Shown here: positions 5,307 to 55,071 of the stretch, piece by piece | Numbering within the stretch: the first letter of the stretch is position 1 | How the letters are laid out: each line of letters opens with the position of its first letter | DNA from: Myxococcota bacterium | GTDB lineage: Bacteria > Myxococcota_A > SURF-8 | Direction: 5' to 3' | NCBI GenBank assembly: GCA_965140415.1 | Contig: OZ223209.1 | Span: 864,001 to 928,000 of the forward strand | Length of the DNA: 64,000 nt | The notes under the pieces: model-generated | The model's database searches: none | Told to the model about the DNA's origin: nothing | Seen by the model: the letters and a program-made list of their open reading frames with translations, nothing else | Position numbers and translations under genes: made by a program

Positions 5307-5341
5307 ACAGGTTTTGCCCATCGATCCAATCGTCTAAATAA

Positions 5342-5368
5342 GATGGGCATGGCAAATGCCCATCCTAC
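5342..5368 (-). repeat. GTAG-type REP palindrome
   Basis: Minus strand GTAGGATGGGCATTTGCCATGCCCATC. Confidence 0.72.
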
Positions 5369-6786: not shown

Positions 6787-6805
6787 ATCTGGGGAAGCGG
6801 GCACG

Positions 6806-8521: not shown

Positions 8522-8530
8522 GCGGAATCA

Positions 8531-11938: not shown

Positions 11939-12029
11939 GGGAGTGGGTGCGAAGAATAGAGGGACAAAGGACAACCGAAACGGTTGCATTCGGACGATAC
12001 AGGGCGAAAAAGGAATAGCGAGGTGGACG

Positions 12030-22493: not shown

Positions 22494-23146
22494 TTCACAA
22501 TAAAAGCAAATATATCCAGCCTGTTATGAGTAACGTGTCAGGATTGGGGCCAGGTGCTTAAACTTTTAGTGTTGGAGAACAAGTCTCCAGCAATAAAAGA
22601 GATTTGTGAGCATACAACACGCTGTTACCGGTCTTGATGTAATCTCTCCATTTCCCGATCTTCAGAAAGAATAAGAATTACATGTACAAGTTAGTGCGAT
22701 TCAAACAAAGGGTTGGAATTTATGATCCATCCACAACCTAAAATCGTTGTCTCTTGCAATATTGTGAATTGTTTGTATGATTAGAAAGGGGTTGCTGTTT
22801 TATTTCGGCGGTTGAATGAGACTGTTATTCTGAAGTGAATCGGAAGAATCCTAAGTGATTTCTTCAAAGTTTTTGATTCTTTGCCAAAGCGTGGAATGAC
22901 GGTTGTTTCGTGCGAGGAAAAGCAATTTGCAACCCGGTATATATTTTAGGGACTGTTCCATCCTTTTCTGTGTCGTGTGGTAGAAGTAAGTAGTTCACAG
23001 CTAACAAATTCAGAAGTGTCAGGGAAGTGAAACCGAATTCAGCTTTCGAGCGGTTGGTTTCTTCTATCGAAGCTGAAGTACAGTAACTGGTCTCTGGTAG
23101 TTGTTTTTCGGCGAATGATCGAATCTACTGTGGGAAAGGATAGCCC

Positions 23147-28934: not shown

Positions 28935-28948
28935 GTTCGGAAAGTACT

Positions 28949-31900: not shown

Positions 31901-32851
31901 GCCTTTAGCCGAAAGCAGATTCTGGAACCTAAAGTGATCAGTATCAATCGACTGATCGAAGACTTGCTGAAAATGCTGGTTCGTTTGATTGGAGAAGATA
32001 TTTCCTTCGTGTTTACACCGAAACGAAATCTGCCGCGCGTTCTTGCGGACCCTGGACAGATCGAACAGGTCGTAATCAACCTTTGTGTCAATGCACGCGA
32101 CGCCATGCCGGATGGCGGAGTCCTGACGATCGAGACCGCGAATGTGGAGCTGAATGAAAGCTATTGCGAACACCATCAATATGTTTCGCCCGGAAGCTAT
32201 GTCATGTTGATTGTCAGCGACACCGGAATCGGAATGGATGAAACAACGAAGCAACGAATATTCGAACCGTTTTTCACCACCAAGCCTAAAGATCGAGGAA
32301 CCGGCCTGGGACTGGCTACGATTTACGGTATTGTGAAGCAGCATGAAGGTCATGTTGAAGTTTATTCAGAACCTGGTGAAGGAACCTGTTTTAGAGTCTA
32401 TCTACCTCAGACGGAGAAGTTGGAAGAAACGCCCGCGCAGAAACTTTCTGCCGAACTTCCGGGTGGGACGGAAAGCATTTTGCTGGTAGAGGATGAGACT
32501 GTCGTGCGTTCGATTGCAGCAAAGATGTTGAAGCGCTTGGGATATACCGTATTGGAGGCGGCATCGGGTGCGGAGGCCAGAATCATTTCGGACGAACTCA
32601 CTCAAAAAATCGATTTACTGATGACCGATGTGGTGATGCCGGGAGAAAATGGACACGAACTCGCCCTGTATATCTTGCAGACGCGTCCAAGGGTAAAGGT
32701 GCTGTATACCTCGGGTTATACGGAAGACACCATTGCGCACCACGGTGTGTTGGATAAGGGGCTTCAGTTTCTTGGCAAGCCGTTCACTCCTAAACTGCTC
32801 GCCAAAAAGATCAGAGAAGTTCTGGATAACGGATCATCGTTGGATACCTGA
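28949..32851 (+). CDS. Cytoplasmic hybrid histidine kinase REC-REC-PASx5-HisKA-HATPase-REC
   Basis: TDLHMP and LDHHLP receivers; five PAS/PAC units ending RDIT/QDIT/TDIT/RDIS; AGGVAHDFNNLL; EPFFTTK..GTGLGL; TDVVMP. Confidence 0.93.
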   Translation: MSVTNEVKAHIVIVNDTPFQLRMMRSILEKEGYAVDCFESAEEALAQMTKPSDNVPHLIVTDLHMPGIDGWRFCRLLRSPEYRHLNEVPILINSATFAGEDTKTISDQAGANAFLGSPYKADDLLRFVRELISGGTPFIKSRLLIVEDSKSLANNLGRVLNEVGFDIQVAYDGDSARKMFKAHKPETVILDHHLPDSTGMQLLQEFEVVNPLAVYIMVTGDEEPELAVQAMKLGASAFVRKPCSHDYLIEIIRKAHRENSLLAVERLLEKRTQTLLEQERRHKAAMDAAHEGFCISVDAQLRYVNPAFSQMIGHPIEQVIGTSLFDYVEEGDRAELMEVYRSYQRGDRSIKLQRVRLKTNQNDHCLVEASGSRIYYEGEQALLCVVRDITETHRMRQEMEHSLRENEQRFRLAAESSSDVVYEWNYQTGKLSWFGDLQKLLNIEKLPERIEELSGFIHPEDRERIISTTRAGIANHTRWQEEYRIIDGTGAIRYWYATGKGFYSSSGDMQLVIGSVQDITERKRIEEDLRFKSLVLDQITDHVTVTDLNGIITYVNQAQLELFGKSEEQMIGQSIHSFGEDPNCGATQREIVDQTKQNGHWRGEVVNYSNDGEAHIMDCRTQLVHDKQGRPIALCGIATDITESRKITSALQESESRYRLVAENASDNIWILSLESMCFTYISPSIEKLFGHSIEYAIETPLEGHMTPESYEIIVNALAEELARDNDLTLERDRSRVFELEQYVHDGGTIWTEVTASFVRDDDGNPISVLGITRDISDRKRAQDALSQSEQKFRSIAEQSSDLIALLGQEGQILYASPISTSMFGIEPEDMIGLHYSLFLLDQDIALAAAALEDTILKRQRIKSLELRMKRKDGSSFFGEVNSSPHKTGDQIGSLIMIRDISERKAAEKERERLEQQLMQSLKMEAIGRLAGGVAHDFNNLLTGISGHASLAMMSYSDIPDLMDSLQEISEATNRAAGLTRQLLAFSRKQILEPKVISINRLIEDLLKMLVRLIGEDISFVFTPKRNLPRVLADPGQIEQVVINLCVNARDAMPDGGVLTIETANVELNESYCEHHQYVSPGSYVMLIVSDTGIGMDETTKQRIFEPFFTTKPKDRGTGLGLATIYGIVKQHEGHVEVYSEPGEGTCFRVYLPQTEKLEETPAQKLSAELPGGTESILLVEDETVVRSIAAKMLKRLGYTVLEAASGAEARIISDELTQKIDLLMTDVVMPGENGHELALYILQTRPRVKVLYTSGYTEDTIAHHGVLDKGLQFLGKPFTPKLLAKKIREVLDNGSSLDT

Positions 32852-32958
32852 ATGAATTCCTTGTGTTCGCCTTGACCCTGTCCCTAAATGGTTTCTCTTT
32901 GTATGTGGGAATTGCCATGCTACACTATGTAAAATCTCAAGTTTATCGAGGGTGAGGC

Positions 32959-34071
32959 ATGGCAAGTCGGGAGCACATCGCACGTGCAGCAAAGGTTTTG
33001 GTCGAGCTGAGCGGACAGCTTCATGACTTGCGCGACTTTCACGAGTTTCCGGCGTTATTGCACCAATTTCTTAAAAAGCATATGCCGGTGGACTGGTTGT
33101 TCGTTGGGATTCCCAATCCTCGCAAAGACTGCCCTGCTGGATACGACTTTCTCGGTCATAATATCGATTTGACCAGTCCCTGGTGGGAGGAATACCCCAA
33201 GATCTGTCAGTATGATTATCTGCTGAAACAGATCTTGATTGTCCCGGAGCGCCATCTCGTTTACGATCGATTCATTCACGATTCTCGTAATGAAGAGCAC
33301 GAATTCATCAAGAGTCAGGCGAACCGCTATACCGACACCCAGTATTGCCTTGCCGCTTCACTACATAAAGCGCCAGGAGCTTTGATTTCTCTGAGTTTGC
33401 ATCGCACGGATAAAAAGCATCCCTTTTCCGAACAGGACCGTGAATTTCTCTCTGCCTTGTTGCCGTTGATGTCGATCGAAACCAAGAATTGGTTACTGTA
33501 CGCACAAAACAACCTGGTTAAGCAGTCCATCGAAGAACTACTGCACCAGCATCATGATGAAGCCATTATTCTCAACCACAATTTGAATGTTGTATATCAT
33601 GATGAGATATTCTTGTCGAAGCTGCAACCAGGTAAAGGCAAGCACAACACAGGCGACATGCCGATTTCGATTCTGCGCTGGATTCATGAAGAGATCGCCC
33701 CGCAGGAGCATTTACCTGCTTTGGGTGGCCCTTGGTATTTGAAACGCAGTTTAGCAAACCCCACCATCGAACTGGTTGCCCATCTGATAGGCAGCCGAGA
33801 TGGCGCTAAGCGCTACTTGCTTGTTACAAAGAATTCGGACCAGCGGGAATCGGATTTTAGTTCGCTTGCACGTATCGGGCTTACCGAGCGAGAGATTGAA
33901 ACACTGACCTATCTTCCTTTTGGATACACAAACTCACAAATCGCCGGAGCAATGAATCTTCGTGAGATCACGATAAAGAAGCATTTTCGTCATATTGGTA
34001 GGAAGCTGAAAGCGAAACGGAAAACGGAAATTCTTTCTAACGCATTGTTGCAAGTGCAGGAGTTGAAGTAG
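32959..34071 (+). CDS. LuxR-family transcriptional regulator with GAF-like N-terminus
   Basis: C-terminal GLTEREIETL...GYTNSQIA..M...TIKKH..HI.RKL; N-terminal LSLHR....FSEQDREFL. Confidence 0.85.
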   Translation: MASREHIARAAKVLVELSGQLHDLRDFHEFPALLHQFLKKHMPVDWLFVGIPNPRKDCPAGYDFLGHNIDLTSPWWEEYPKICQYDYLLKQILIVPERHLVYDRFIHDSRNEEHEFIKSQANRYTDTQYCLAASLHKAPGALISLSLHRTDKKHPFSEQDREFLSALLPLMSIETKNWLLYAQNNLVKQSIEELLHQHHDEAIILNHNLNVVYHDEIFLSKLQPGKGKHNTGDMPISILRWIHEEIAPQEHLPALGGPWYLKRSLANPTIELVAHLIGSRDGAKRYLLVTKNSDQRESDFSSLARIGLTEREIETLTYLPFGYTNSQIAGAMNLREITIKKHFRHIGRKLKAKRKTEILSNALLQVQELK

Positions 34072-37922: not shown

Positions 37923-40900
37923 CTAATAGGTCCGTACGTTGCTCTTATAACCGGTGCAGCCGGTCTGCCCGCTCGTGGCCTGAGAGCCATCGCCGCCGGT
38001 GCGACCACCCGCGCCGCCAGCACCACCGCTTCCGCCGCTGCCACCGGAATAGCTTACATTGATGGTTGCGATAGACGAACTGCTTACCAGCGCCGTGCCG
38101 ATGGATGGACCGCCGCAGCCGCCAGCCGAGCCACCTGCGCCACCGCCGTCACCGCCCGAATTGCCGCCGCCGCCGGTACCGGCTTCGTCACCGCTGGGAT
38201 TGTATCCCGCGCCGCCGCCTTTGCCGACACCGCCGTTTCCACCGGCGCCACCCGACCCGCCGTTACCGCCGTCACCGAGTTCGATATCCGTGTTGGTCAC
38301 TCGAATCGTGGAACCGATCAGCACGATGCCGAAGGAGCCGCCGCCCTGACCGCCACCGGTGCCGGGTAAGCCGCCGCAGCCGCCCGCGCCGCCGCCGCCG
38401 CCGCCGCCGCCGATCTGCGTACCCGACCAGAAGACGCAATACCAGGGGTCGATGTCGGTTCCACCGCCACCGCCGCCACCGCCACCGGTACCGTTTTTAC
38501 CTCGGTAGCCTGAGCTACTAGTGGCACCATACCAGTAACCGCTGGAGAAATAGCCGTCTGAGTCGCTGGAGGTGCTGCCTCGCGATCCGGTTGCTCCGGC
38601 ATATCCGGCTCCGCCGCCACCGCCGTTACCGCCGGTATCGTCACAACCGCTGCATTTGTTTGAACCGGCGGAACCGCCGCCGCCACCGCTGGCGGTATCC
38701 GTTCCTGCCGAGCCTGTTCCTCCACCGCCGCTGCCGCAATCCCAGGAGCCGCCACCGGTGCCTCCATTGGCGCTACCGTAAGGGCTACAATTGACGGTGC
38801 CTCGCGATCCGCCGGAGCCGCCGGAGCCATTACCACCGTTGCTACCGGTGGCTCCGGTAGAACCGCTGGATCCATCGACGCCGCGACCACCGTTTCCGGC
38901 TTGAATCAAGCAGTTATCCACCAACAGGCGCTCCGACAAGGTGTTGTTAACCCACAAAGCGTAGGTGGCTGTACCGCTGCTGGAGTAATTCTTGCCGCGA
39001 ATGGTCAAGCCCTGCAACTTGGTGTCGCTGCTCAAGCCGTTGGCGATGACCGCTCGTGTTGTGCTTCCTACAATTACTGTTTGAATGGACAGATTGCGCG
39101 CCCAGGTGCTGGGATCGTAACCGCCGAACAAGTCTACTCCTGCAACCAGCGTAACGCTGGCGGTATAGGTGCCGCTGCTGATCAGCACATCGCATTTGGG
39201 TGAGCAGCTATTGGCCAGCGTGATGGCATGGGCGATGGTTGCGACCGGATCGCCGAATGCACCACTGTTGGAGTCGCTGCCGCCATTGGCCGGAGTCGCC
39301 ACAAAGATGGATGTCGCCTTGACGCCATCGACGCCGTCACAGTTGGAATCGATGCCGGAGGAATCCGGGGCATCGGTGGATTGCGGTGTCTGCTGTCCGA
39401 CACAGCTTCCATAGCTTCCACCGGAGCAGGTTTTCATGCCGCCGTGACAAATACCTACATCCTCGGTGCCCGACGGACCGGTGTAGCAGTCGGCGGTAAG
39501 GGGATTGCCTGCATCGTCTTCATCGGTGTAACCGTCGCAGTCGTCATCCGAACCGTTGCAGGTCTCGGTTGTGCTGCCGGTGGAGTCGGTACAGACCTGA
39601 TGACTGGACTGGCACAGGTTCACACCTTCCATGCACAAGTCGCTGTCCGGGCCGTCGCAGGCGGTGTTGTACCAGGATTCATCCGAACCGTCCGGGGTGG
39701 CACCGTTGCAGTCGTCGTTGACGCCGTTGCATAGTTCCAGGTTATTGCCGGTCGTGTCGGTACAGGTTTGATTGCCGCCGGAGCAGACGGAAATTCCCTC
39801 CGTGCACAAGTCGCTGTCGGGACCGTCGCAGCTGTTTCCAAGCCAGGATTCATCTGCACCGTCGGCGCTGCTGGGATCGCAGTCATCGTCGATGCCGTTA
39901 CAGATTTCCACGTTATTCCCACTGGTGTCCGAACAGAGTTTGCTGCCGGAGGAACAATAGAAATTGCCTTCCGCACAGAAATCGGAATCCGTACCGTCGC
40001 AGGCATCGCCCAGCCAGGATTCATCCGCGCCGTCTGCGGTGGCGGGGTTACAGTCGTCATCGTTGCCATTGCACAATTCGAGATCGTTGCCGCTGGTGTC
40101 GCTGCAACTCTGGTTACCGTTGGTGCACGAGTAGGTTCCTTCCTTGCACAGATCGCTGTCTGCGCCGTCGCAGGGATCGCCCAACCAGCTGGCATCCGTG
40201 CCGTCGGCGGTGGCGGGATTGCAGTCGTCGTCCACCCCGTTACAGATTTCCGCATTGTTGCCGCTGGTATCGCTGCAACTCTGAGATCCACCGCTACAGG
40301 TATACACGCCTTCGTGGCACAGATCCGTGTCGGAACCGTCGCAGGTATCACCCAGCCAACTGGCATCCGCACCGTCTGCGGTGGCGGGGTTGCAGTCGTC
40401 GTCTGCGCCATTGCACAGATCCAACGTGTTGCCGGTCGCGTCGTTACAGGTTTTGCTGCCACCATCGCAGATGAACGAGCCCTCCTGGCACAGGTCCGTG
40501 TCGGGACCGTCGCAGGGATCGCCCAGCCAGGTGGCGTCGGTACCGTCTGCGGTGGCAGGGTTACAGTCATCGTCTACGCCGTTGCACAGATCCAGCGAAT
40601 CGCCAGTGTTGTCGCCACAGGTTTTGCTTCCACCGCTACAGATGAAGCCGCCTTCCTGGCACAAGTCGCTGTCGGGACCGTCGCAGGGATCACCCAGCCA
40701 ACTGGCATCCGCGCCATCGGCGGTAGCCGGGTTGCAGTCGTCGTCCGAACCGTTGCACAGATCCAGCGTGTCGCCGGTCGTGTCGTTACAGGTCTGGCTG
40801 CCATTGTTACAGATGTAGCTTCCTTCCTTGCACAGATCGCTGTCCGCGCCGTCGCAAGCCGTGCCCAGCCAACTGGCATCCGCACCATCCGGGGTGGCGG

Positions 40901-43900
40901 GGTTACAGTCGTTGTCCAATCCGTCACACAGTTCAAGAGACGAGGTGCTGGTATCGGTACAGGTCTGACTGCCTCCGCTACAGACGTATACGCCCTCCTC
41001 GCAGAGATCATCGTCCGGGCCGTCGCATACGTCGTTCAACCAGCTTTCCTGGGAGCCGTCTGCGGTGGCCGGGTTGCAGTCGTCGTCGGTGCCGTTGCAA
41101 AGTTCCACGTTGTCGGCGGTTGTATCGTTACAGGTCTGGTTGCCATCCTGACAGATGTATTCGCCTTCCTTGCACAAATCCGTATCCACGCCGTCGCAGG
41201 TTGTTCCCAGCCAGGTTGCATCTGCGCCGTCAGCAGTGGCGGGGTTGCAGTCGTCGTCTACGCCGTTGCAGGATTCAACATTATTCGACGTGGCGTCGGT
41301 GCAGGTTTTGACCGAATCCGTACAGGTGTAGCTGCCTTCCTCGCACAGATCCGTGTCGGGACCGTCGCAGGAATCGCCGAACCAGCTTTCATCCCGGCCA
41401 TCCAGGGTGGCGGGGTTGCAGTCGTCATCGTTGCCGTTACAGAGTTCCAGATTGTCACCGCTAGTGTCCGAACAGGTTTTCGAGCCAAACGCGCATTCGA
41501 ACACGCCTTCCAGGCACAGATCGGCGTCGTTGCCGTCGCAGGCCGTACCAAGCCAGGTTTCATCGGCGCCGTCGGGAGTGGCGGGGTTGCAGTCGTCATC
41601 CACGCCATTGCATAGCTCCGCACCGAAACCGGGATCATCCACACACTGCTGACCGCCGCTGATGCACTGATAGCTGCCGTCCTCGCACAAATCCGCATCG
41701 TTTCCGTCGCAGGCCGTGCCGAACCAGGCTTCATCCGCGCCATCGGAGGTGGCGGGGTTGCAGTCGTCGTCCTGCCCATTGCACAGATCCAAAGTGTCCG
41801 CGCTGTTGTCGTTGCAGGTTTTGGCGGCACCCGAACAGATATACACACCCTCCTCACACAGATCCGAGTCGTTACCATCACAGAGATCGCCTAGCCAGGT
41901 TGCATCCGCACCGTCGGCGGTGGCGGGGTTACAGTCGTTGTCCAAGCCGTCGCAAAGTTCGGGATTTTCTCCGCTGGTATCCGAGCAGCTCTGCCCGCCA
42001 TCGACGCACTGGAAAAAGCCTTCTTCGCACAAATCGCTGTCGCTTCCATCGCAGGCCGTGCCCAGCCAGCTCTCGTGTGCACCGTCCGGCGTGATGGGAT
42101 TGCAGTCGTCGTCCTGGCCGTTACACAAATCGGGGGTGTCGCCGCTCTCGTCATTACAGGTTTTTGCGGCACCCGAGCAGACGTACACTCCTTCCTGGCA
42201 CAGATCCGCATCGTTACCGTCGCAGGCATCGCCAAGCCAGGTTGCGTCGGCGCCGTCGGCGGTAGCGGGGTTGCAGTCGTTGTCCAGCCCGTCGCACAAT
42301 TCCAGGTTCGCGCCGGTCGTGTCCGAGCAACTCTGCCCGCCATCGACGCAGCGCAGGAAACCTTCTTCGCACAAATCGCTGTCCTCGCCGTCGCAGGCGT
42401 CACCCAACCAGCTTTCGTCGGCTCCGTCCGGGGTGTAGGGATTGCAGTCGTCGTCCTGCCCGTTGCAGAGATCCGGTGTGTCGTCGCTGGCATCGTTGCA
42501 GGTTTTCACACTGTCCTGGCAGGTAAAGTTCCCCTCGTTGCACAAGTCGCTATCGGGTCCATCGCAGGGAGTGTCATACCAGGCTTCATGCTGGCCATCG
42601 ATGGTGGCGGGGTTGCAGTCGTTGTCCTCGCCGTCGCAGAGATCCAGCAGGTTGCCGGTGGTATCCGAGCAGCTTTGCGCTGCATCGACGCATTGGAAAA
42701 TTCCCTCTTCGCACAGATCGGTATCTTCGCCGTCGCAGGCATTGCCAAGCCACTCTTCATCGTTGCCGTCGGCTGTAAAGGGATTGCAGTCGTCGTCTTC
42801 GCCGTTACACAATTCCAGGTTGTTTGACGTCGTATCGTCGCAGGTTTTGTCTCCGTTTACACACTGGAAAACGCCTTCCTCGCACAAGTCGGCGTCTTCG
42901 CCGTCGCAGGGATCGCCCAGCCAAACGGCGTCCGCGCCATCCGCCGTATTCGGGTTGCAGTCGTTATCCTGGCCATCGCAGTATTCCAGGTTGTCGGTGG
43001 TATTGTCGCTACAGATCTGCGCACTTTCGGAGCACAGGAAAATTCCTTCCGCGCATAAGTCGGCGTCCTCGCCATCGCATTCGTTGCCGTACCAGTCTTC
43101 ATCTCGTCCGTCCAGCGTAAAGACGTTGCAGTCGTTATCCACGCCGTCGCAGAGTTCCAGATTGTCGCCGGTATTATCGGAGCAGCTCTGTTGCGCGTCG
43201 ATACAGGAGTAAATCCCTTCCTTGCAGTTATCCGAATCCTCGCCGTCGCAATCCGTGCCGTACCAGCTTTCATCCGATCCATCGGGTGTGTCGGGGTTGC
43301 AGTCGTTATCCTGACCATCGCAGATGTCGCGGGTGTTGTCGGTAGTGTCGGTACAGACCTGATTGCCTCCCTGACAGATGTACAGACCCTCTTCGCACAG
43401 ATCGGTGTCCGTTCCGTCGCAGGCGGTCTGCAACCAGCTTTCACCCGAGCCATCTGCGGTCAATGGGTTGCAGTCGTCGTCTTCGCCGTTGCAAAGGTCC
43501 AGGTTGTTTTCGCTGGTGTCGGTACAGACCTGGCTGCCATCCTGGCAGATATACTGTCCCTCTTCGCACAGATCGGTGTCCGTTCCGTCGCAGGCGGTGG
43601 AGAGCCAGCTTTCATGCGTGCCATCGGGAGTATCCGGGTTGCAGTCGTCATCTTCGCCATTGCATAGATCCGGCGTATCCGAGGAAATATCGGTACAGAT
43701 CTGCTCACCGAGTTCACAGGTGAACACGCCTTCCTCGCACAAATCCGCGTCGTTGCCGTCGCAGGGTTGGCCGATCCATTCCAGTGGATCGCCGACGCAG
43801 GCGCCATCTTCGCCGCAACGGTCGTTGTCCGTGCAGGGATCGCCATCGTCGCAGCCTTCGCCGACGTTTGCCGGCAGCGCGATGCAGGAATCGTGCTCTT

Positions 43901-46900
43901 CATCACAATCGGGAACCTGACATTGCGGCTCAACAATGGCTTCGGAGCAGTCGCGCGGCTGCGTGTCGGTGCAATCACCCGCCGAGCAGGCATCATCCAC
44001 GGTGCAGAATAGACCGTCATCACACAGTGCGCCGTCTTCGATATCGCTCCAGCTTGTTGGATCGAAGAAAGGCAGGCAGATCCGGCAGACATTATCCGGG
44101 TTCGAGTCGCGATATTCATAGCAATCATGATCGATCAGGCATTGGTTCTCTTCGATCTGATGACCGCACATCCCCTGTTCACACACATTAAACGTACACG
44201 TATTGCCATCATCCTGACACTCCAGACACCCAGAGCCGCAGTGCATGGGATCATCGTCGGGATAACATTGTTCGCCGCAGCGGTGGTAGCCTTGCAGACA
44301 TTCAAAGTCGCAGAATCCATAGGGGCAGATGGCCAGTGCATAGTCGGGCGGCGTGCAGTTGCTGGTTACGTTCGCACCGTCGTCGGTTTCTCCGTTGCAG
44401 TCGTTGTCCAGATCGTCGCAGATTTCCACGCCGTAGTTGCTGATATCGCAGGGATATTCGCAGTCGCTGGGATCGTCGTCCAGATCCCACCAACCTTCCG
44501 GGCAGGGAACGCCGCGCCCGGCCAGTTCGTAATCGCTGGTTGTGGAAAGATACGAGTTGCTGGTGATCTGCACGGTGGCATTGAAATCGAAGGGTTCTTC
44601 GCTGCTTTCGCCTTCGGGAACGACCGGCAAAAATGCGATATCAACCGCAAGCGTATTGGCTTCGCCGGGATACAACTCAAAGGGCAAACCTTGTTCTGGC
44701 GGCAGAATCACAAAGACATCCGAATAGAATCCGGGCAGTACTTCCAGCGAATCGACGACCAATACGCCTAAAATTCCGGAGTTGCGCAGGCGGATGCGCT
44801 GCACGTTCTGGGCGGCGAAGTGCGTATCGGGAAATTCCAAAGGCGATACGGGCGCCACGCTCAATCGCTGGTCCGTACCGATTCCGAACAACCCAATGGC
44901 TACCTGGGGAGAGAAGGGATCGTCTCCGGTGATCAGGAAACCGCCGATGTCCTCGCCCGGATAGGTAATCGGGCTGTAGCGCAGGGTCACTCCGACGTGA
45001 CCGCCGGCGGCGATCTGGATCGAACCGGTATCTTCGAAAGAGAATTCCTCTAACGTGGAATTGGTGGTGATCTGCAAGGACTGAATGGTCAACACGGCAT
45101 CGCCTTGATTGGCCAGATCCAGGACACGCTCTTCCGTGCTGTTCAAACCCACTTCCCCGAAATCGATTTGATCCACGAAATCGGGATTGTCGCGTTCGGT
45201 CACGACCAGCACCGGTGCGATACCCAAGCCGCCTACGGCGATATCCTGCGAAACCGTGACCAGATCGTCGGTCACGATATGAATCAATGCGCTGTAATTC
45301 TGACGCGCCAGCGGCGCGAAGGTGACGTGCAGTTCGTGTGTGCCTTCGCTTTCCAGGACCACATTTTCCAGCACATCGGTTTCATCGAATGAGAAGACGT
45401 CGCTGGTTTCCGCAAATCCGATCGTTACCAGCGTTACCGGCAAGGAACCAGTATTGGTCAATGTCAATGTGCGCGTAACCTGTTGACTGACGCGCGTTTC
45501 CGGGAACTGCAACGCTTCCGGATCGGCCAGCAACGAGGAAGGCACCGCTTCTCCACGCAGATTGACAATGAAGTTCTGCGAACCGAAGGTGTTGTTGTCG
45601 ATTCGGATCTGTCCGCTGTGTTCACCCACCGTCATCGTGTTGAATGTCACCGGCAGCGCCGCATGTTGTCCCGCTTCCAACGCGATCTCGCCATTGGCGA
45701 AAGCGGTCAGATCGAGGCTGAATGCCTCTGAAGAGGTATCCACCATTTCGGGTGGTTGCACGATCAACATACCACCGCCGGAGTTGGACAGGGTCAACTC
45801 GATCGTTACCGGCACACCCGCTCGCTGCTCACCGAAATTCAAAGTGTTCTGTGCCTGTAGTGTTTCCACTTTCAGAACGGGAGCAACACCGGTGCAACTC
45901 AATTCCACGACATAGGTGGATTCGTCGATATCGTTGCTTTCCACGATCAACCGGTCGCTAAATTCGCCCATTTGCGGCGGATGGCACAAAACCGTGATTT
46001 CCAGTTCCTGTCCTTGGCCGATGCGTAGCGGCAATGTGCTTGCGTTGACCGCAAAGACTTCGGAAGATTCGGATTCCAGATACAGACCATTGATGCGCAG
46101 CACGGCGTTGTCGTTTTCACCGCCTGGCAGGTTTTTAAGAATCAAGGTGCGCTCGGCAGCGGGATCTCCAACGACGACATTATGGAAATCCAACGGATTG
46201 GGGTTGGCGTCGATATCCGCCGTTCCCTTGTATTGGGACCGTAACTGCACCCGGAAGGGACCGTCGGGATCATCGGAGCTGATGACCAGTTCCGCCTCGT
46301 CGGGACCGGCGTCGAGTGGTTTGTAGCTGATATCCACCTGGATCGATTCGGCAATACCTGTGATCATCGCCGGGAAATCCGGGGGTTGGATCAGGCTGAA
46401 TTCAGTGCTGGTGGAAACGATTTCCATACTCGTAACGGTGAGTGTCCGTCCCTCGCAGAGATTGGAGATGTTGACTGTGCGCACAACCTCGGTGTTATAA
46501 GGGACATAGCCGAAATCCAGGATCTGCTCTGCCAGAATTTCCGGACCCAGTTCGCAGTCGCCCACCGGTTTGTCGCCATCGACGGTGCCGTCATCATCAC
46601 CGCCGCCATCGCCATCGGGAACGTCGCCATCCGTACCGCTACAGGTGCAATCGTCGCCGCAAGCCTCACCTACGGGGCAATCCGTATCGCGGCTGCACTC
46701 CTCGCCTTCCGAACAGGGATTCTGATCGCTGGGGATGCAGTTTCCTTGATGACAAACCGAATCGCTGGGGCAATCCAGATCCAGCAGACAACCCGTTCCG
46801 CCGGATTCCTGATCGGTATCCGTGTCGCCGTCGGTATCCGCCACGCCGGAATCGTCGGCACAAGCCGATAGCAACCCGATTGCAAGCATCACCGCCAAAA

Positions 46901-46934
46901 CCAGCATGAACCATCGATTGATAGAGCTTTTCAT
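37923..46934 (-). CDS. Giant (~3003 aa) surface lipoprotein: 6 Ig-like (ASH/choice-of-anchor D-like) domains, 25 Cys/Asp-rich 57-aa repeats, beta-helix-like and Gly-rich C-terminus
   Basis: ATG 46934 gives MKSSINRW..LLSAC lipobox; LDFG..V..L.I.N.G domains; CNGxDDDC repeats; GGGGGGG-rich end. Confidence 0.88.
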   Translation of the reverse strand: MKSSINRWFMLVLAVMLAIGLLSACADDSGVADTDGDTDTDQESGGTGCLLDLDCPSDSVCHQGNCIPSDQNPCSEGEECSRDTDCPVGEACGDDCTCSGTDGDVPDGDGGGDDDGTVDGDKPVGDCELGPEILAEQILDFGYVPYNTEVVRTVNISNLCEGRTLTVTSMEIVSTSTEFSLIQPPDFPAMITGIAESIQVDISYKPLDAGPDEAELVISSDDPDGPFRVQLRSQYKGTADIDANPNPLDFHNVVVGDPAAERTLILKNLPGGENDNAVLRINGLYLESESSEVFAVNASTLPLRIGQGQELEITVLCHPPQMGEFSDRLIVESNDIDESTYVVELSCTGVAPVLKVETLQAQNTLNFGEQRAGVPVTIELTLSNSGGGMLIVQPPEMVDTSSEAFSLDLTAFANGEIALEAGQHAALPVTFNTMTVGEHSGQIRIDNNTFGSQNFIVNLRGEAVPSSLLADPEALQFPETRVSQQVTRTLTLTNTGSLPVTLVTIGFAETSDVFSFDETDVLENVVLESEGTHELHVTFAPLARQNYSALIHIVTDDLVTVSQDIAVGGLGIAPVLVVTERDNPDFVDQIDFGEVGLNSTEERVLDLANQGDAVLTIQSLQITTNSTLEEFSFEDTGSIQIAAGGHVGVTLRYSPITYPGEDIGGFLITGDDPFSPQVAIGLFGIGTDQRLSVAPVSPLEFPDTHFAAQNVQRIRLRNSGILGVLVVDSLEVLPGFYSDVFVILPPEQGLPFELYPGEANTLAVDIAFLPVVPEGESSEEPFDFNATVQITSNSYLSTTSDYELAGRGVPCPEGWWDLDDDPSDCEYPCDISNYGVEICDDLDNDCNGETDDGANVTSNCTPPDYALAICPYGFCDFECLQGYHRCGEQCYPDDDPMHCGSGCLECQDDGNTCTFNVCEQGMCGHQIEENQCLIDHDCYEYRDSNPDNVCRICLPFFDPTSWSDIEDGALCDDGLFCTVDDACSAGDCTDTQPRDCSEAIVEPQCQVPDCDEEHDSCIALPANVGEGCDDGDPCTDNDRCGEDGACVGDPLEWIGQPCDGNDADLCEEGVFTCELGEQICTDISSDTPDLCNGEDDDCNPDTPDGTHESWLSTACDGTDTDLCEEGQYICQDGSQVCTDTSENNLDLCNGEDDDCNPLTADGSGESWLQTACDGTDTDLCEEGLYICQGGNQVCTDTTDNTRDICDGQDNDCNPDTPDGSDESWYGTDCDGEDSDNCKEGIYSCIDAQQSCSDNTGDNLELCDGVDNDCNVFTLDGRDEDWYGNECDGEDADLCAEGIFLCSESAQICSDNTTDNLEYCDGQDNDCNPNTADGADAVWLGDPCDGEDADLCEEGVFQCVNGDKTCDDTTSNNLELCNGEDDDCNPFTADGNDEEWLGNACDGEDTDLCEEGIFQCVDAAQSCSDTTGNLLDLCDGEDNDCNPATIDGQHEAWYDTPCDGPDSDLCNEGNFTCQDSVKTCNDASDDTPDLCNGQDDDCNPYTPDGADESWLGDACDGEDSDLCEEGFLRCVDGGQSCSDTTGANLELCDGLDNDCNPATADGADATWLGDACDGNDADLCQEGVYVCSGAAKTCNDESGDTPDLCNGQDDDCNPITPDGAHESWLGTACDGSDSDLCEEGFFQCVDGGQSCSDTSGENPELCDGLDNDCNPATADGADATWLGDLCDGNDSDLCEEGVYICSGAAKTCNDNSADTLDLCNGQDDDCNPATSDGADEAWFGTACDGNDADLCEDGSYQCISGGQQCVDDPGFGAELCNGVDDDCNPATPDGADETWLGTACDGNDADLCLEGVFECAFGSKTCSDTSGDNLELCNGNDDDCNPATLDGRDESWFGDSCDGPDTDLCEEGSYTCTDSVKTCTDATSNNVESCNGVDDDCNPATADGADATWLGTTCDGVDTDLCKEGEYICQDGNQTCNDTTADNVELCNGTDDDCNPATADGSQESWLNDVCDGPDDDLCEEGVYVCSGGSQTCTDTSTSSLELCDGLDNDCNPATPDGADASWLGTACDGADSDLCKEGSYICNNGSQTCNDTTGDTLDLCNGSDDDCNPATADGADASWLGDPCDGPDSDLCQEGGFICSGGSKTCGDNTGDSLDLCNGVDDDCNPATADGTDATWLGDPCDGPDTDLCQEGSFICDGGSKTCNDATGNTLDLCNGADDDCNPATADGADASWLGDTCDGSDTDLCHEGVYTCSGGSQSCSDTSGNNAEICNGVDDDCNPATADGTDASWLGDPCDGADSDLCKEGTYSCTNGNQSCSDTSGNDLELCNGNDDDCNPATADGADESWLGDACDGTDSDFCAEGNFYCSSGSKLCSDTSGNNVEICNGIDDDCDPSSADGADESWLGNSCDGPDSDLCTEGISVCSGGNQTCTDTTGNNLELCNGVNDDCNGATPDGSDESWYNTACDGPDSDLCMEGVNLCQSSHQVCTDSTGSTTETCNGSDDDCDGYTDEDDAGNPLTADCYTGPSGTEDVGICHGGMKTCSGGSYGSCVGQQTPQSTDAPDSSGIDSNCDGVDGVKATSIFVATPANGGSDSNSGAFGDPVATIAHAITLANSCSPKCDVLISSGTYTASVTLVAGVDLFGGYDPSTWARNLSIQTVIVGSTTRAVIANGLSSDTKLQGLTIRGKNYSSSGTATYALWVNNTLSERLLVDNCLIQAGNGGRGVDGSSGSTGATGSNGGNGSGGSGGSRGTVNCSPYGSANGGTGGGSWDCGSGGGGTGSAGTDTASGGGGGSAGSNKCSGCDDTGGNGGGGGAGYAGATGSRGSTSSDSDGYFSSGYWYGATSSSGYRGKNGTGGGGGGGGGTDIDPWYCVFWSGTQIGGGGGGGGAGGCGGLPGTGGGQGGGSFGIVLIGSTIRVTNTDIELGDGGNGGSGGAGGNGGVGKGGGAGYNPSGDEAGTGGGGNSGGDGGGAGGSAGGCGGPSIGTALVSSSSIATINVSYSGGSGGSGGAGGAGGRTGGDGSQATSGQTGCTGYKSNVRTY
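39504..43778 (-). repeat. Intragenic tandem array, 25 x 171 bp
   Basis: First Trp codon ends at 43778 and the 25th at 39674, exactly 24 x 171 apart; unit WxGxxCDGxDxDLCxEGxxxCxxGxxxCxDxxxxxxxLCNGxDDDCNPxTxDGxxxx. Confidence 0.95.
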
Positions 46935-47197
46935 GGGATATCCCTTTTTATTGCAGTGGCAATGATGGAACGGCGCAACCGCCCGAAGCACCCCACCCGG
47001 GCCGCTTGCCGATCCAACCTTCATGACCGTTTCGTTTGTACTAATTTCTAACTCACACTTCCTATTATGTTGTGCCAACTAGCCTTTTGTCAACTTGAAC
47101 TGAAGGATTCGTATATTTCAATCAATTTGACTTTTTTCACTAGCTCGGCTATGAGCGAATGAGGATTAAATCAGATATGTATTATGAGGAGCGATTC

Positions 47198-50733: not shown

Positions 50734-52947
50734 TTGAAAATCGCAATCATTTGTGATGCACCCTGCCAGGCTCCCACATCTGAAATTGACTTTACGTTTC
50801 AAGGGCTTTCGGATACAGTAAGCGCTGTTGCAACAAGGAATGACGTAGTTATGCGCAGAGATTTGAACGATTTCGACACGTTTTCGGCTTTTATTGCGGA
50901 TTTAATCCGTGAACGAAGTCCGTTGGAATCCGTGCGCGTTTCTCCCCAGGCAGACGGATCGTTGCGCTTCGATATCCAGGTGAAATCTCTCGATTTCACT
51001 TTCTTCTGGAGTGAAGATTCTCCGATCACAGGAATCTGCAACCCGTTAAGAGACGGCTATCTCTGCTGCAACGCAGAGCCGAACGAGTCCGATTTGCTTC
51101 GCAAAGCCTGGACCGTTAAATTGACAGCCTTTCTTTCGGAAAAAATCAACCGCTTGCTCGATGGCGAACCGCCCGCCCTGCTGCAATGGCGAAACCGACA
51201 TCATCAAACGATTTCCTGGGGAATCCGACTTTTTCCGTGGTTGTTTTCCGGGTTGATCAAGAAGGGGCGCACCCGCTTCGGGGAATATACCCTGATTGAC
51301 CTCAATGAGTATGAAGGATACCTGAATCTTGTTTTCGAATCGAGACAAGCTCGGGTAGCATTTCGGCTTTCACCAAAAGGAACGGTCAAAGGAAAACCGG
51401 TGTGCTCGCGTGGTCCGCTTGAATTGCATATCATGGAGGATACACGCAGTCATAATGATCTATTGGAGCCTTTCCATGCGATTGAGCAATTCATGGGGTA
51501 CGTACTGGCTCGCTGCCTGCCGAAATCCTTTAGTCTGATCTTCGAAGGCAACGATGTACCTGCCGGGTTGCGGTCACCGGAAGTTCAACTCAATTTTCTC
51601 AATACGGAGCCGCCGGTCGGTTCCTCCATTTATGAAACGATTTTCACTACTTCACCGGATATCGTGACCATTTCGGCCTGCGATCATGAATGCTTCAATA
51701 TGTTTTCTTTTATCGCCGCGCCGCGTGAAAGTTGGCTGACGGTCATGCCTTGGTCGCTTAAACCGCGACTGGATTTCGTCGATCATGGACACAACGTGCT
51801 GCTCTCGAATCGAAGCATTATCATGGGCTCCGATGAAGTGGAGCATTCCCTGGCGCAATTGGACCACCTGAATCCATCGCCGGAAATGGCGATTTTCGTT
51901 GAATCCTGTATTCCGCGTATGATCGGTCTGGACCTGGAAGGTCCGGTCAATCGTTTTCAGAGGAAAAACACCGTTCCTCTCATTCCGTACAAGGTAACGC
52001 TTTCTGAAAAGCAGTATCTGGACACGTTCAGAGAGTTTTGGGTGCATTGCTACGAACAAATGGCCGATAAAGCCGCCGCACCGGAGTCGGATGTTGTCTC
52101 CCTGTTTGGAATCACAGACGATACAGGCGATTTGGTGTATCAACTGCTTGAACAAAACGGCGTTCGCTGCCAATCGAATCTGTTCCCGCTGCTCGACGTT
52201 CCCTCCCTTCGGAATCTACCGAAAAGCTCTCTGCTTGTGGTGAATGAATGGGAGTACATCGAGGTTCTGTTTTCCGATCTGATACAAAAACTGAATCGCC
52301 CGGTGTTGCGCCTGCCACTGCCATACGGTATTGAAGGTTCACTTTTATTCGTGCGCGAAATCGTGAAAAGGCTGCATGATCGGGATCTCATGTCGCTGGA
52401 TCAAAACGAGCAACTGTTGCAATACCAACAGGAGTTTCAAAAGGAGAAGGAGCGTATCGAAGGCGAGCGGGTAGCCATCATTCTGAAAATGGAGGATTTA
52501 CCCGAGCAACTGCTGCCCGGGCGTCGCTTCGGTCTGCCGTTTATCGATTTGCTTCACGAACTTGGTTTGGCAGTCGATTGTCTGGTGTATGTGCCTGATG
52601 CGACTTCAAGCGACCTCGTAGAGCCTTGTAGGGCAGCAGGGTTGAAGTTGGAAAACGGGGATCGTTGCACTGTGTTTCGCCGTTACGACGACCTGACGGA
52701 ACTGCTTCACGACGGTGAATTCAAGCTGGTATACAGTGAGGCGTTTCGGGATCGCAGGATCACGAGTGCAGGGAAGTTTCCAATCAATCTGAAGGCGTTC
52801 CAACCCGGATTCTCGGGAGCCGTAGCGACAGCCAGGCGCATTGCCAAAGCGCTTGAAATGAACTTCTACAAAAATCACGGTTATCGTCTGACTTCGCCGG
52901 TCGCCCATCTGCGTCCATCTGAAAAGGAGGAGCGCAATGGAGAATAA
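50734..52947 (+). CDS. Nitrogenase component-1-like (NifD/E-fold) oxidoreductase subunit with long unknown N-terminal extension (alternative start ATG 50851)
   Basis: IIMGSDEV, ESCIPRMIGLDL (cf. NifD ECPxGLIGDD), LPLPYGIEGS, C-terminal FQPGFSGA; overlaps the next gene. Confidence 0.72.
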   Translation: MKIAIICDAPCQAPTSEIDFTFQGLSDTVSAVATRNDVVMRRDLNDFDTFSAFIADLIRERSPLESVRVSPQADGSLRFDIQVKSLDFTFFWSEDSPITGICNPLRDGYLCCNAEPNESDLLRKAWTVKLTAFLSEKINRLLDGEPPALLQWRNRHHQTISWGIRLFPWLFSGLIKKGRTRFGEYTLIDLNEYEGYLNLVFESRQARVAFRLSPKGTVKGKPVCSRGPLELHIMEDTRSHNDLLEPFHAIEQFMGYVLARCLPKSFSLIFEGNDVPAGLRSPEVQLNFLNTEPPVGSSIYETIFTTSPDIVTISACDHECFNMFSFIAAPRESWLTVMPWSLKPRLDFVDHGHNVLLSNRSIIMGSDEVEHSLAQLDHLNPSPEMAIFVESCIPRMIGLDLEGPVNRFQRKNTVPLIPYKVTLSEKQYLDTFREFWVHCYEQMADKAAAPESDVVSLFGITDDTGDLVYQLLEQNGVRCQSNLFPLLDVPSLRNLPKSSLLVVNEWEYIEVLFSDLIQKLNRPVLRLPLPYGIEGSLLFVREIVKRLHDRDLMSLDQNEQLLQYQQEFQKEKERIEGERVAIILKMEDLPEQLLPGRRFGLPFIDLLHELGLAVDCLVYVPDATSSDLVEPCRAAGLKLENGDRCTVFRRYDDLTELLHDGEFKLVYSEAFRDRRITSAGKFPINLKAFQPGFSGAVATARRIAKALEMNFYKNHGYRLTSPVAHLRPSEKEERNGE

Positions 52948-54253
52948 CAACCGCAAAAATCCTTTGGGAACGCCGATTAACATCGTTGCTCCCTACGTCG
53001 ATGGCGCATACCTGGCTACCAATGCGATATCGGATGCCTACCTGATCTATCATGCTCACGATTGCGGCTATTTCAAAGCGGAAAAAATTGTCGGGCACCA
53101 TGATCTGTTCTCGGATCTATTGAGATACGAGCGGATAGGGAGGGTAGTGCGCAGTAATATCGGCTCGAAGGAATTCGTGTTGGGCGGAGAGGACAGGCTC
53201 TCGCGCCGCATACGGCAAATCACCGAAACTTATCGCTGTGAAGTGCTGTTCGTAGTCAGTTCAAACGTCTCGATTCTTGCCGGCGAAGACCTGCGTCCGC
53301 ATCTGGTTGAGATGGAAGGGAAAACCGGCGTACCGATTGTCACTCTGCCTGAGCGTCACGTTTACAAGGATTACCTGACCGGCTACCTGGATACTGTCAA
53401 GGCGCTGCTTGAACGGGTGCAGTTCAATTCAGACGAGGCGTCGCACGGCGTTGCGATTACAGGTTTTGTGTTCGAACGCAATGAAGCGGATACTGCGGCG
53501 GATATAGAAGAAATCAAATCGATGTTGGCCGCGATGGGCGTTGAAGTGTCGGCGGTGTTTTTGGATGGCGGAAGAGCGCAACGCTGGAAAGAACTTCCGC
53601 CACCGGAGGCGGTGATCGACATCGCTCACGGAGAGGGAGGCGGAGCCACGCTTGCCAATCGCTATGACATTCCCTGCCTGGAGATCGGGGCGCCAATCGG
53701 AATTGAAGGAACAAAGAAATGGCTTGAGGAAGTCGCGGCTTGGTTGAACGCAGAGGCCAAGGCGAAGTCCTATATCGAATGGCAACTGGAAGGGCTGGTC
53801 GATCAACTCGAATGGATCATTCCCCGGTATTTTCTGGGGCGAGGTGCAATTCTGTTTGCCGATCGTCTTAAAATGGTTGCGCTTGCAGATTTTCTTGAAG
53901 AGATTGGGCTGACTGTACTGGGAGCAGAATGCACGTCGCATGAATTCGAAGACGATGCGAAAAACCTTCTCGCCCAGCGCTATGGCAGGCTTCCCGTGAT
54001 GGCCATGGAACTACGCGAATATATTACCGATAACATGAAGAGGGACCGGTTGCATATCGGTCTGGGTACCAGTTTGTTCAACCAGAACGCTGCCGCGCAG
54101 GGACTGCCCTTCGTCGAGATCGGTTATCCTTCGAATTTCCACCATGCTCTTTATCCAAGACCTACATTCGGCTTTGGCGGAGTCCGGGTGCTTATTGAGC
54201 GAATGATCAACGCGATCAATGCCACCGAAATTTATTATGGGAGTAACCGATGA
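52937..54253 (+). CDS. Nitrogenase component-1-like (NifK/N-fold) subunit
   Basis: GA..A...I.DA....HAHDC, FVLGGEDRL, LAGEDL, PIGIEGTKKWL, IGYPS..HH..PRPTFGFGG...LIERMIN. Confidence 0.82.
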   Translation: MENNNRKNPLGTPINIVAPYVDGAYLATNAISDAYLIYHAHDCGYFKAEKIVGHHDLFSDLLRYERIGRVVRSNIGSKEFVLGGEDRLSRRIRQITETYRCEVLFVVSSNVSILAGEDLRPHLVEMEGKTGVPIVTLPERHVYKDYLTGYLDTVKALLERVQFNSDEASHGVAITGFVFERNEADTAADIEEIKSMLAAMGVEVSAVFLDGGRAQRWKELPPPEAVIDIAHGEGGGATLANRYDIPCLEIGAPIGIEGTKKWLEEVAAWLNAEAKAKSYIEWQLEGLVDQLEWIIPRYFLGRGAILFADRLKMVALADFLEEIGLTVLGAECTSHEFEDDAKNLLAQRYGRLPVMAMELREYITDNMKRDRLHIGLGTSLFNQNAAAQGLPFVEIGYPSNFHHALYPRPTFGFGGVRVLIERMINAINATEIYYGSNR

Positions 54254-55071
54254 GAATGATTGCATTTTACGGAAAAGGCGGCATCGGAAAATCGACCCTC
54301 GTTTCTGCGCTTTCCACCTTGTTCGCCAAGAATGGGCATCGAGTGCTTCAGTTCGGTTGCGATCCGAAGAGCGATTCCTGCTTCACACTTTTGGACGGCC
54401 CAATCACCACCGTAATGGAAGAGTGGACAGAGCGCGGCGAGCAGGATTTGACTTTGGAGCACTGCTTGATGACGACACCCAACGGTGTCGATTGCCTTGA
54501 AGTGGGCGGTCCGCAACCGGGAAGCGGATGTGCGGGGCGAGGTATCACGAAGACTTTGGAAATGATAGGAAGCCCCACGGAGTTGAAGAATCGGTACGAC
54601 ATCGTCCTTTTCGATGTGCTGGGCGACGTGGTTTGTGGTGGTTTTTCCGCACCGATGCGTGAAGGCTACGCACAAGAAGTGTACATCGTTACTTCAGGCG
54701 AATTTCGATCGCTGTATGCAGCCAACAATATCGCTTTCGGAGTGAAGAAGAACGCCATCAACGGAACGCGGCTGGGAGGTTTGATCGCCAACTTGCGCAA
54801 TGTTCCGGAAGAAGTGGAAAAAATCGAACAACTGGCAAAGTTGCTAAAAACTCGCGTAGCCGGTGTCATCCCGCGTGACGATGCCATAGGAAAAGCCGAG
54901 TTGATGCGACGCCCGGTCGTCGATACCGACCCGAACTGTCCGGCTACCAAGGCGCTGATGAAGCTCTCCGAAACGATTTCCGCTATCGAGCAAAGCCAGC
55001 TCGTCGTTCCTGCACCATTGCCTCGCATCGAATTCGAAAATCTATTCTTCAATACCAGGTCAACGAGTTAG
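54250..55071 (+). CDS. nifH: NifH/BchL/CfbC-family ATP-dependent Fe protein (divergent paralog)
   Basis: YGKGGIGKS, GCDPKSDS, EVGGPQPGSGCAGRG, DVLGDVVCGGF, SLYAANNI; both [4Fe-4S] Cys present. Confidence 0.92.
   Translation: MRMIAFYGKGGIGKSTLVSALSTLFAKNGHRVLQFGCDPKSDSCFTLLDGPITTVMEEWTERGEQDLTLEHCLMTTPNGVDCLEVGGPQPGSGCAGRGITKTLEMIGSPTELKNRYDIVLFDVLGDVVCGGFSAPMREGYAQEVYIVTSGEFRSLYAANNIAFGVKKNAINGTRLGGLIANLRNVPEEVEKIEQLAKLLKTRVAGVIPRDDAIGKAELMRRPVVDTDPNCPATKALMKLSETISAIEQSQLVVPAPLPRIEFENLFFNTRSTS

Follow-up and report, generated by a model that had tools for sequence, protein, structure and literature searches.

A stand-alone D-K-H operon from a Myxococcota genome as a probable long-D variant of the Group VI nitrogenase-like reductases

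The window analysed here is a stretch of 64,000 nucleotides from a Myxococcota bacterium (contig OZ223209.1, positions 864,001 to 928,000), and the subject of this report is an operon of three genes within it, whose products resemble the D, K and H components of nitrogenase. The evidence as a whole is best explained if the three genes together specify a complete reductase of three subunits, of the Group VI nitrogenase-like (NFL) type, with a single metal cluster at the interface of D and K and an organic substrate, a reading in which considerable confidence can be placed. The operon is most aptly classed as a deep, long-D variant within the Group VI reductases and represents no new category. 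An earlier reading of the DNA from its letters (the original prediction) had described a stand-alone nitrogenase-like operon of unknown chemistry. The clade was already named Group VI in 2020, and the operon is less novel than had been implied.

The operon consists of three plus-strand open reading frames (ORFs) in the order D-K-H, the positions of which are collected in Table 1. The translational coupling that had been proposed is confirmed by the frames and by the junction sequence. The D and K genes overlap by 11 nt (52937-52947), with the ATG of K at 52937, 8 nt before the TAA of D (52945-52947), and an AGGAGG just upstream of it. The K/H junction is an ATGA at 54250-54253. The D gene had been placed at 50734 and its frame is open from a TTG at that position; the true start is probably the ATG at 50851, since the database copy of the protein (P0137) begins there, at residue 40 of the TTG frame, as does the alignable sequence of the homologues. 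The 39 codons between the TTG and the ATG are not conserved, and residues of D are numbered here from the ATG. Pfam recognises H as PF00142 (Fer4_NifH, 272.9 bits) and K as PF00148 (Oxidored_nitro, 186.1 bits). The PF00148 match of D is weaker (56.3 bits) and covers only residues 356-707 in the numbering of the 737-aa TTG frame.

Table 1. Positions of the genes, domains and putative cluster ligands of the operon (window coordinates)
Feature	Position	Strand	Remarks
D-like (NflD-type) catalytic subunit gene	50851..52947	+	698 aa from the probable start; frame open from TTG 50734 (737 aa)
N-terminal extension of D (aa 1-262)	50851..51636	+	two alpha+beta subdomains; family and fold not recognised
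Component-1 (Oxidored_nitro) core of D	51637..52947	+	holds C277, C281 and C353
D Cys codons	C277 51679-51681; C281 51691-51693; C353 51907-51909	+	
K-like (NflK-type) subunit gene	52937..54253	+	ATG start, 438 aa; single family-invariant Cys, C43
K Cys codon	C43 53063-53065	+	
H-like Fe protein gene	54250..55071	+	ATG start, 273 aa
H cluster Cys codons	C94 54529-54531; C129 54634-54636	+	
H motifs			P-loop G8-T16; switch I C37-S43; switch II D122-D126

The residues expected to bind metal are retained in full in H and in part in D and K. In H the P-loop, switch I, switch II and both cluster cysteines are all invariant in an alignment that includes a NifH verified above its NCBIfam cut-off. In D, C281 (motif HxDxEC) occupies the position of alpha-C88 and C353 (motif TCxPxxIG) that of alpha-C154; neither varies among the 108 D-like proteins aligned or among the 34 locus ORFs. 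An extra cysteine of the subclade to which the window belongs, C277, gives a C-x3-C arrangement and is present in 10 of 10 rows of that subclade and in 20 of the 108 overall. Alignment with a verified NifD reveals no counterpart of alpha-C62 in D, a Glu at the position of alpha-C275 and a gap at that of alpha-H442. Similarly, C43 of K aligns with the cysteine of the 'HGSQGC' motif of a verified NifK, the beta-C95 position, and is invariant (16/16 and 17/17 rows), with Val and Asn at the positions of beta-C70 and beta-C153. In all, three of the six P-cluster cysteine positions are kept (D-C281, D-C353 and K-C43) and both FeMo-cofactor ligand positions are missing, a pattern which a single interface [4Fe-4S] cluster would fit. 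The nitrogenase residue numbers are those of the A. vinelandii proteins, and they agree with the Cys spacing in the verified NifD and NifK of locus L113.

The AlphaFold2 model of D, built from a 108-row alignment, has a mean pLDDT of 92.8 and a pTM of 0.86. Over its C-terminal 460 or so residues Foldseek matches it to NifD, NifE and MarD at E values of about 1e-15, with a TM score normalised to the target of 0.62-0.70 for MarD. The model, the Pfam matches and the H motifs together bear out the proposal of two divergent component-1-fold subunits accompanied by an intact Fe protein. A complex of the D core (residues 240-698) with K and a riding 4Fe-4S cluster gives an ipSAE of 0.72 against 0.00 for the best of three controls; the ipSAE mark is reached by 58 of 80 solved complexes and by 2 of 110 mismatched pairs. 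At least 68% of contacts are common to the runs, and partner pLDDT is 82 or more. The confident interface comprises residues 278-290 and 353-354 of D and 33, 41-47, 52-55 and 109-111 of K, stretches that hold D-C281, D-C353 and K-C43, and C277 lies one residue before the first of them in D. D and K are therefore predicted to pair like NifD and NifK, although complexes of the NifDK type have been solved, so the predictor may have learnt such pairs and the result shows likeness rather than binding.

The proteins stand apart from those characterised members of the superfamily for which NCBIfam equivalog models were used (Nif, Vnf, Anf, DPOR, COR and Cfb), with H, D and K all far under every cut-off. 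H reaches 286.5 bits on the nifH model (cut-off 394), 272.6 on CfbC (402), 196.5 on BchL (345) and 160.9 on BchX (331). K reaches 89.6 bits on BchB (490), 31.4 on CfbD (268.4) and 27.8 on nifK (427), and D 35.2 on BchN (324) and 20.5 on nifE (505). The best scores of any operon protein on BchZ and BchY are 25.8 (529) and 11.9 (425), and the nifD and nifK models give at most 27.8 bits. The lack of a nifB/E/N, bch/chl or cfb partner, first noted for the window, extends to the whole genome of 5.98 Mb, which is a single contig. Its best nifB match is 29.1 bits (cut-off 343.65), and PF00148 is matched only four times, twice in the operon and twice in a second set 140 kb away, so that nifEN, bchNB/YZ and cfbD are absent from the genome. 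There are two strong NifH-type matches in the genome, the flanking ORFs scanned include no nif, bch, cfb or radical SAM gene, and a sample of 201 genomes of the phylum yielded no nifK match at E <= 1e-30. The NCBIfam scores and the Cys/His alignment thus place the operon in none of these clades with its full ligand set, and the genome profile searches give no nifBEN set. These results support the earlier proposal of an ATP-driven low-potential reductase that is not a nitrogenase. A bona fide minimal N2-fixing nitrogenase is practically out of the question: H scores closest to the nifH model and stands on the NifH side of the H tree (see below), but even this score is below the cut-off, those on nifD and nifK are at most a few tens of bits, and FeMo-cofactor ligands, nifB and nifEN are all lacking.

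The group to which D and K are assigned was described by Meheust et al. (2020; bioRxiv 10.1101/765248), who report Group VI NifH-like proteins with equivalents of C97 and C132, and very divergent NifD- and NifK-like partners without some of the P-cluster cysteines. According to the same authors cofactor-assembly genes are missing, several copies are present per genome and radical SAM genes are frequent neighbours (0 to 13 copies). Homologues were recorded in 14 Myxococcales genomes, with which the Myxococcota origin of the window is in agreement, and Elusimicrobia bacterium GWA2_69_24 was named as a carrier of new nifH-like genes. The hosts given are Elusimicrobia, Myxococcales and Gracilibacteria (Meheust et al., 2020; North and Shafaat, 2026). 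A review of July 2026 still treats the group as uncharacterised (North and Shafaat, 2026), and no later work was found at the level of titles and abstracts.

A component-1 tree (quick IQ-TREE maximum likelihood with SH-aLRT support) was made from 64 rows, a subset of 66 D and 79 K matches, consisting of 32 D-like rows (25 locus cores, 6 H-D fusions and the window), 28 K-like rows and 4 Nif rows. The outgroup sequences for the trees (nifH, D, K, E and N) were taken from the genome of locus L020; its NifH, D, K and E exceed their NCBIfam cut-offs and NifN is just under (300.8 against 326.8). One branch (support 99) sets off the 32 D-like rows without exception, and another (98) likewise the 28 K-like rows, in each case apart from the verified NifD, NifE, NifK and NifN. 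Both clades contain rows from the Elusimicrobia genomes GWA2_66_18 and GWA2_69_24. The D of the window falls in a five-row subclade with loci L015, L016, L017 and L019 (99), which is sister to the remaining D rows (85), and its K in a four-row subclade with L015-L017 (100). In the K tree the GWA2_69_24 sequence branches outside a group made up of the window subclade and the rest (95). Judged by sequence, D and K cluster with the NFL proteins assigned to Group VI in Elusimicrobia and Myxococcales. The H tree is an unrooted tree of 109 rows without Group IV/V references, which includes 20 H-D fusion rows and omits 14 near-duplicate NifH-like rows and 4 H ORFs not matching the P-loop pattern. In it the 18-row H subclade of the window is monophyletic (99), and the second H of the same genome is placed elsewhere. 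The trees thus set D and K with Group VI but leave H outside the H clade of Elusimicrobia, and since Group VI was defined on NifH it is D and K that carry the assignment.

A word-indexed protein search with K yielded 15 proteins, the best 51% identical and the last, from an Elusimicrobiota metagenome-assembled genome (MAG), 26%. A scan with the K alignment over one genome per GTDB species gave 91 relatives in 77 loci, labelled mostly as Elusimicrobia, Myxococcales/Myxococcota and 'Deltaproteobacteria' MAGs, with a few from Binatia, Desulfobacter, Oligoflexales, Spirochaetes and two DPANN archaea; GWA2_69_24 (L086) and GWA2_66_18 (L042) are among them. Searching representatives with D returned 531 clusters at E <= 1e-3, 330 at 1e-10 and 28 at 1e-30. 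The search with H returned about 50 clusters at 56-63% identity followed by a fall to 50% or less, which indicates that the window subclade is rare but real. This subclade is deep and well supported, and is present in Myxococcota, Binatia and other MAGs. Single genomes carry two to four very divergent copies, and a metagenome scan found the family at six loci. Five genomes from the taxonomic family of the host all have D-like genes, only 24-27% identical to the D of the window, and a genome of the same order (G006) has an orthologous D-K-H set (35%, 42% and 63% identical to D, K and H). The cassette is self-contained, patchily distributed and multi-copy.

Some variants within the family were seen in passing. 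In G006 the D gene (L098:9109-11282) is split into frames of 166 and 557 aa, which could reflect a frameshift, a sequencing error or a real split. In many Elusimicrobia loci (for example L043:7626-9971, L074:7569-9974, L021:25-2460 and L068:7611-9965) one frame of about 750-870 aa matches both H and D and is followed by K; from their sequences these frames look like H-D fusion proteins, and they may explain reported genomes with 'only NflH and NflD'. A metagenome contig (L114, about 1-14000) bears two sets back to back, separated by a 467-aa ORF: H-D-K (273, 620 and 461 aa) on the minus strand and D-K-H (694, 430 and 271 aa) on the plus strand. D-like and K-like genes of the family also occur on Nanoarchaeota/Woesearchaeota MAG contigs (L023 and L045), either by transfer to DPANN archaea or by binning error.

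As an alternative to a reductase, the operon might encode a NifEN-like cluster-assembly scaffold or a decaying, non-functional paralogue. This is highly improbable: NifE does stand high among the sequence and fold matches of D, but the genome holds no cofactor-dependent enzyme for a scaffold to serve. As regards decay, no exact orthologue was found in five of five genomes from the taxonomic family of the host (the best D matches being those at 24-27%) and the orthologous D of G006 is split, yet the three frames are open and tightly coupled with ribosome-binding sites upstream, the nucleotide-binding and cluster motifs of H are all intact, C281 and C353 of D are invariant over the 108 sequences and D is modelled with the high pLDDT given above.

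When the operon is set beside known systems, Group VI is the closest. D and K share clades with Elusimicrobia sequences, including the genome named by Meheust et al. (2020), and further points of likeness are an intact Fe protein with equivalents of C97 and C132, at most four cysteines out of the six of the P-cluster (three in the operon), the loss of the C275 and H442 equivalents, the lack of NifB and the presence of several divergent copies in one genome. The operon differs in its D-K-H order, where Elusimicrobia loci mostly have an H-D fusion and then K, in a D of 698 aa with a two-subdomain N-terminal extension and a CxxxC motif, in the position of its H outside the Elusimicrobia H clade, and in a locus without radical SAM neighbours. 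Mo-nitrogenase NifHDK has the same three-component architecture and folds, and the predicted D/K pairing is that of NifD/NifK. On sequence grounds, however, the defining features of Nif, Vnf and Anf (full P-cluster and FeMo-cofactor ligands, NifB and a NifEN-type scaffold) are lacking, with three of the six P-cluster cysteines and both FeMo-cofactor ligands missing from the operon and NifB and NifEN from the genome.

DPOR (BchL/ChlL with BchNB/ChlNB) resembles the proposed enzyme in its ATP-dependent Fe protein, its heterotetramer and its one inter-subunit [4Fe-4S] cluster without a complex cofactor, and among the component-1 models of NCBIfam K scores best on BchB and D on BchN. The scores are nevertheless far below the BchB, BchN and BchL cut-offs and below all other Bch cut-offs, which by this measure places the operon outside DPOR/COR (Group V), and no photosynthesis genes were seen. 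The DPOR cluster is bound by three Cys from N and one Asp from B (North and Shafaat, 2026), whereas the operon would offer two or three Cys from D and one from K. CfbCD (Group IV-B) is similar in its simple [4Fe-4S] chemistry and in the score of H on the CfbC model. CfbD is a homodimer (North and Shafaat, 2026), whereas the operon has two distinct component-1 genes and scores below the CfbC and CfbD cut-offs, so that by its sequences it falls outside this group too.

Methylthio-alkane reductase (MAR; MarHDK, Group IV-C, PDB 9fmg and 9d9u) has a fold similar to D, and its MarD is the best solved-structure match of the D profile (110 bits). This match, and the FGE-sulfatase-domain proteins found near both loci of the genome, could suggest an enzyme that cleaves an organosulfur C-S bond for sulfur acquisition, like MAR or ISR (Group IV-F). 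Such a role is very unlikely, since MAR keeps its P-cluster ligands, binds an L-like cluster and needs a NifB-type maturase (North and Shafaat, 2026), whereas the alignment and the nifB search find only three of the six P-cluster positions and neither cofactor ligands in the operon nor nifB in the genome. In addition, no sulfur-assimilation genes were seen, and the FGE-domain neighbour has one homologue in only one other locus (L076).

The D of the window carries an N-terminal extension of about 260 residues, which is made up of two alpha+beta subdomains (residues 4-110 and 115-230, approximately) and has a pLDDT of 88.5 when modelled alone. No Pfam family matches it. Foldseek against the PDB gives no match at E <= 0.001 (best DynU16, E 1.4e-3), a wide VIA search no chain at Z >= 8, and the ESM Atlas no usable match. 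The best VIA match is Mdm12 (SMP/TULIP-type) at Z 7.8, followed by other weak matches such as BPI (Z 6.4) and DynU16 (Z 5.7), all three of which are lipid- or ligand-binding folds. The H-D fusions of Elusimicrobia had raised the idea that the extension is a degenerate Fe-protein domain; this was rejected, as hhalign gives a probability of at most 0.4% against the H family. Against the D core the probability is 0.1%. On iterated searching, the N-terminal part turned up in 64 (median length 695 aa) of the 150 best D-like representatives, and 53 of the 64 have both subdomains. Judged by sequence, the double domain thus characterises much of the family, and the second copy of the same genome (723 aa) has it too.

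Upstream of the operon are a GNAT gene and a divergently transcribed gene for a 931-aa protein with an FGE-sulfatase domain. The genes for a PAS histidine kinase, a response regulator and a response-regulator-PAS-GGDEF protein begin 221 nt downstream, and a simple scan saw no terminator between H and the PAS kinase gene; promoter-like sites are no commoner than in shuffled sequence. A look through public sequencing runs turned up no RNA data set. Of the 94 Radical_SAM matches of the genome none falls in the window; those nearest to the two nitrogenase-like loci, at genome positions 807524 and 1249771, lie some 107 kb and 189 kb from them, the operon itself beginning at 914851. Beside relatives radical SAM genes are common. 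The largest cluster of neighbours, with 128 members, is represented at 49 of 79 screened loci; among the 107 members scanned, Radical_SAM was matched in 77, B12-binding in 6, TP_methylase in 5 and SPASM in 3. At L015, the closest GTDB locus, three radical SAM genes are present among seven neighbours scanned. Neighbours at the window and at the second locus (L014) gave only generic matches to the proteins of all loci, and the orthologous set of G006 sits among unrelated genes. With no Radical_SAM match in the window and no neighbour conserved across the subclade, the description of the operon as stand-alone holds. Tight clusters of Radical_SAM genes elsewhere on the chromosome, far from both loci (for example G000:C1 4884000-4889873, 3958827-3961941 and 2055136-2057589), are possible distant partners.

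The second set of the genome is arranged H-D-K with 4-nt overlaps on the minus strand (L014:8381-12680; G000:C1:1056380-1060679). Its H', D' and K' of 280, 723 and 430 aa are 40%, 22% and 28% identical to the H, D and K of the window. Directly upstream is a gene for a 396-aa SGNH/AlgX-type hydrolase, and 5 kb away (L014:17700-19898, plus strand) is a 732-aa fusion of a class-V aminotransferase (cysteine-desulfurase-like) with AIRS/AIRS_C (SelD-like) domains. Elsewhere, a Desulfobacter-labelled MAG (G201) has a verified nifH-(two small ORFs)-nifDKENB cluster (L113:3086-11886) and also a long-D H-D-K set (L020:7264-11368) amid ORFs of the radical SAM neighbour cluster. A canonical nitrogenase and a long-D NFL set coexist independently in this genome.

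From the radical SAM, B12-binding and HemN_C context of Group VI, Meheust et al. (2020) proposed that its enzymes reduce a tetrapyrrole to make a novel cofactor. For the operon studied here this is possible, though doubtful. The characterised NFL enzymes with simple clusters (DPOR, COR and CfbCD) all reduce tetrapyrroles (North and Shafaat, 2026), and TP_methylase and B12-binding genes are present among the scanned neighbours of relatives (5/107 and 6/107). Neither locus of the genome, however, has a radical SAM, B12 or tetrapyrrole gene near it, no neighbour is conserved across the window subclade, and two to four very divergent copies per genome would fit a diversified range of substrates better than a single cofactor.

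A more general mechanism for the proposed Group VI-type reductase can be outlined. The H dimer would hydrolyse ATP and pass low-potential electrons singly to D/K, where they would be received by a single [4Fe-4S] cluster held between the two subunits, with D-C277, D-C281, D-C353 and K-C43 as the putative ligands in the subclade. No P-cluster and no FeMo-cofactor or L-cluster would be present, since only half of the six P-cluster positions and neither of the cofactor ligand positions are retained and NifB is not encoded in the genome. As in DPOR, COR and CfbCD, the electrons would go on to reduce an organic substrate that D binds. In the most speculative step, this substrate would be bulky and largely hydrophobic, candidates being a tetrapyrrole-like ring or another unsaturated natural product, and the N-terminal double domain of D may take part in its binding or delivery. 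Given that the subclade has no conserved neighbour, the three genes would form a self-contained module acting on a substrate made elsewhere in the genome. It is a further and rather unlikely suggestion that the long-D subclade is a functionally separate kind of enzyme, in which a tandem helix-grip/TULIP-like module feeds a hydrophobic substrate to an all-cysteine interface [4Fe-4S] cluster within a stand-alone cassette.

Several observations weigh against the assignment of the operon to a Group VI-type reductase acting in this way. In the unrooted 109-row tree the 18-row H subclade shares a 67-row split (95) with true-NifH-like rows and others that are unlabelled, and it is apart from the 23-row core of Elusimicrobia H proteins (98). 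The component-1 outgroups all come from a single genome, that of L020, without Bch, Cfb, Mar or Isr references. The radical SAM, B12 and tetrapyrrole-methylase context of the relatives is absent at both loci of the genome, and the 11 loci of the window subclade share no recurring neighbour except in one pair of close relatives. The four putative cysteine ligands are deduced from conservation and from the predicted interface rather than read from coordinates. For the N-terminal domain, the fold matches do not rise above the range of common arrangements (Z < 8), so that its role in ligand binding is a guess.

Other features of the window lie apart from the operon. A 3051-aa ORF on the minus strand (37923-47078) has Ig-like repeats of the HYDIN/ASH/DUF1573 type and lies in a stretch with a raised G+C content of 0.59-0.63, compared with about 0.50-0.55 around it. 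The region 22001-34000 has a G+C content of 0.45-0.48 and encodes two giant hybrid sensor kinases, the first (1616 aa) with a phosphonate-binding periplasmic domain, PAS, HisKA/HATPase, two receivers and Hpt, the second (1300 aa) with three receiver and four PAS domains. A cellulose-synthase-like pair is found at 8531-14330 (plus strand), in which BcsB (795 aa) comes after a 1135-aa GT2 protein that has MshEN domains, and IF-2 is encoded at 17375-20473.

Group VI is the only major branch of the nitrogenase superfamily without a characterised member (North and Shafaat, 2026), and its hosts are mostly uncultured. The operon described here is a compact candidate for heterologous work, with three coupled genes, no obligatory maturase, a clear set of putative ligands and a high-confidence model of D. 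To what has been reported of the group it adds a precise candidate ligand set, the N-terminal double domain and the demonstration that the cassette stands alone. The double domain and the 2(+1)+1 cysteine pattern were not met in what Meheust et al. (2020) and North and Shafaat (2026) say of Group VI, no dedicated search having been made, and together they narrow the possible metal site and substrate. If the long-D subclade does prove to be a separate kind of enzyme, its cassette would have diversified into several paralogues per genome in Myxococcota and their relatives as a set of ATP-driven lipid or natural-product reductases, rather than as part of one cofactor pathway. Finding the substrate would show further biological uses of ATP-driven, very low-potential reduction.

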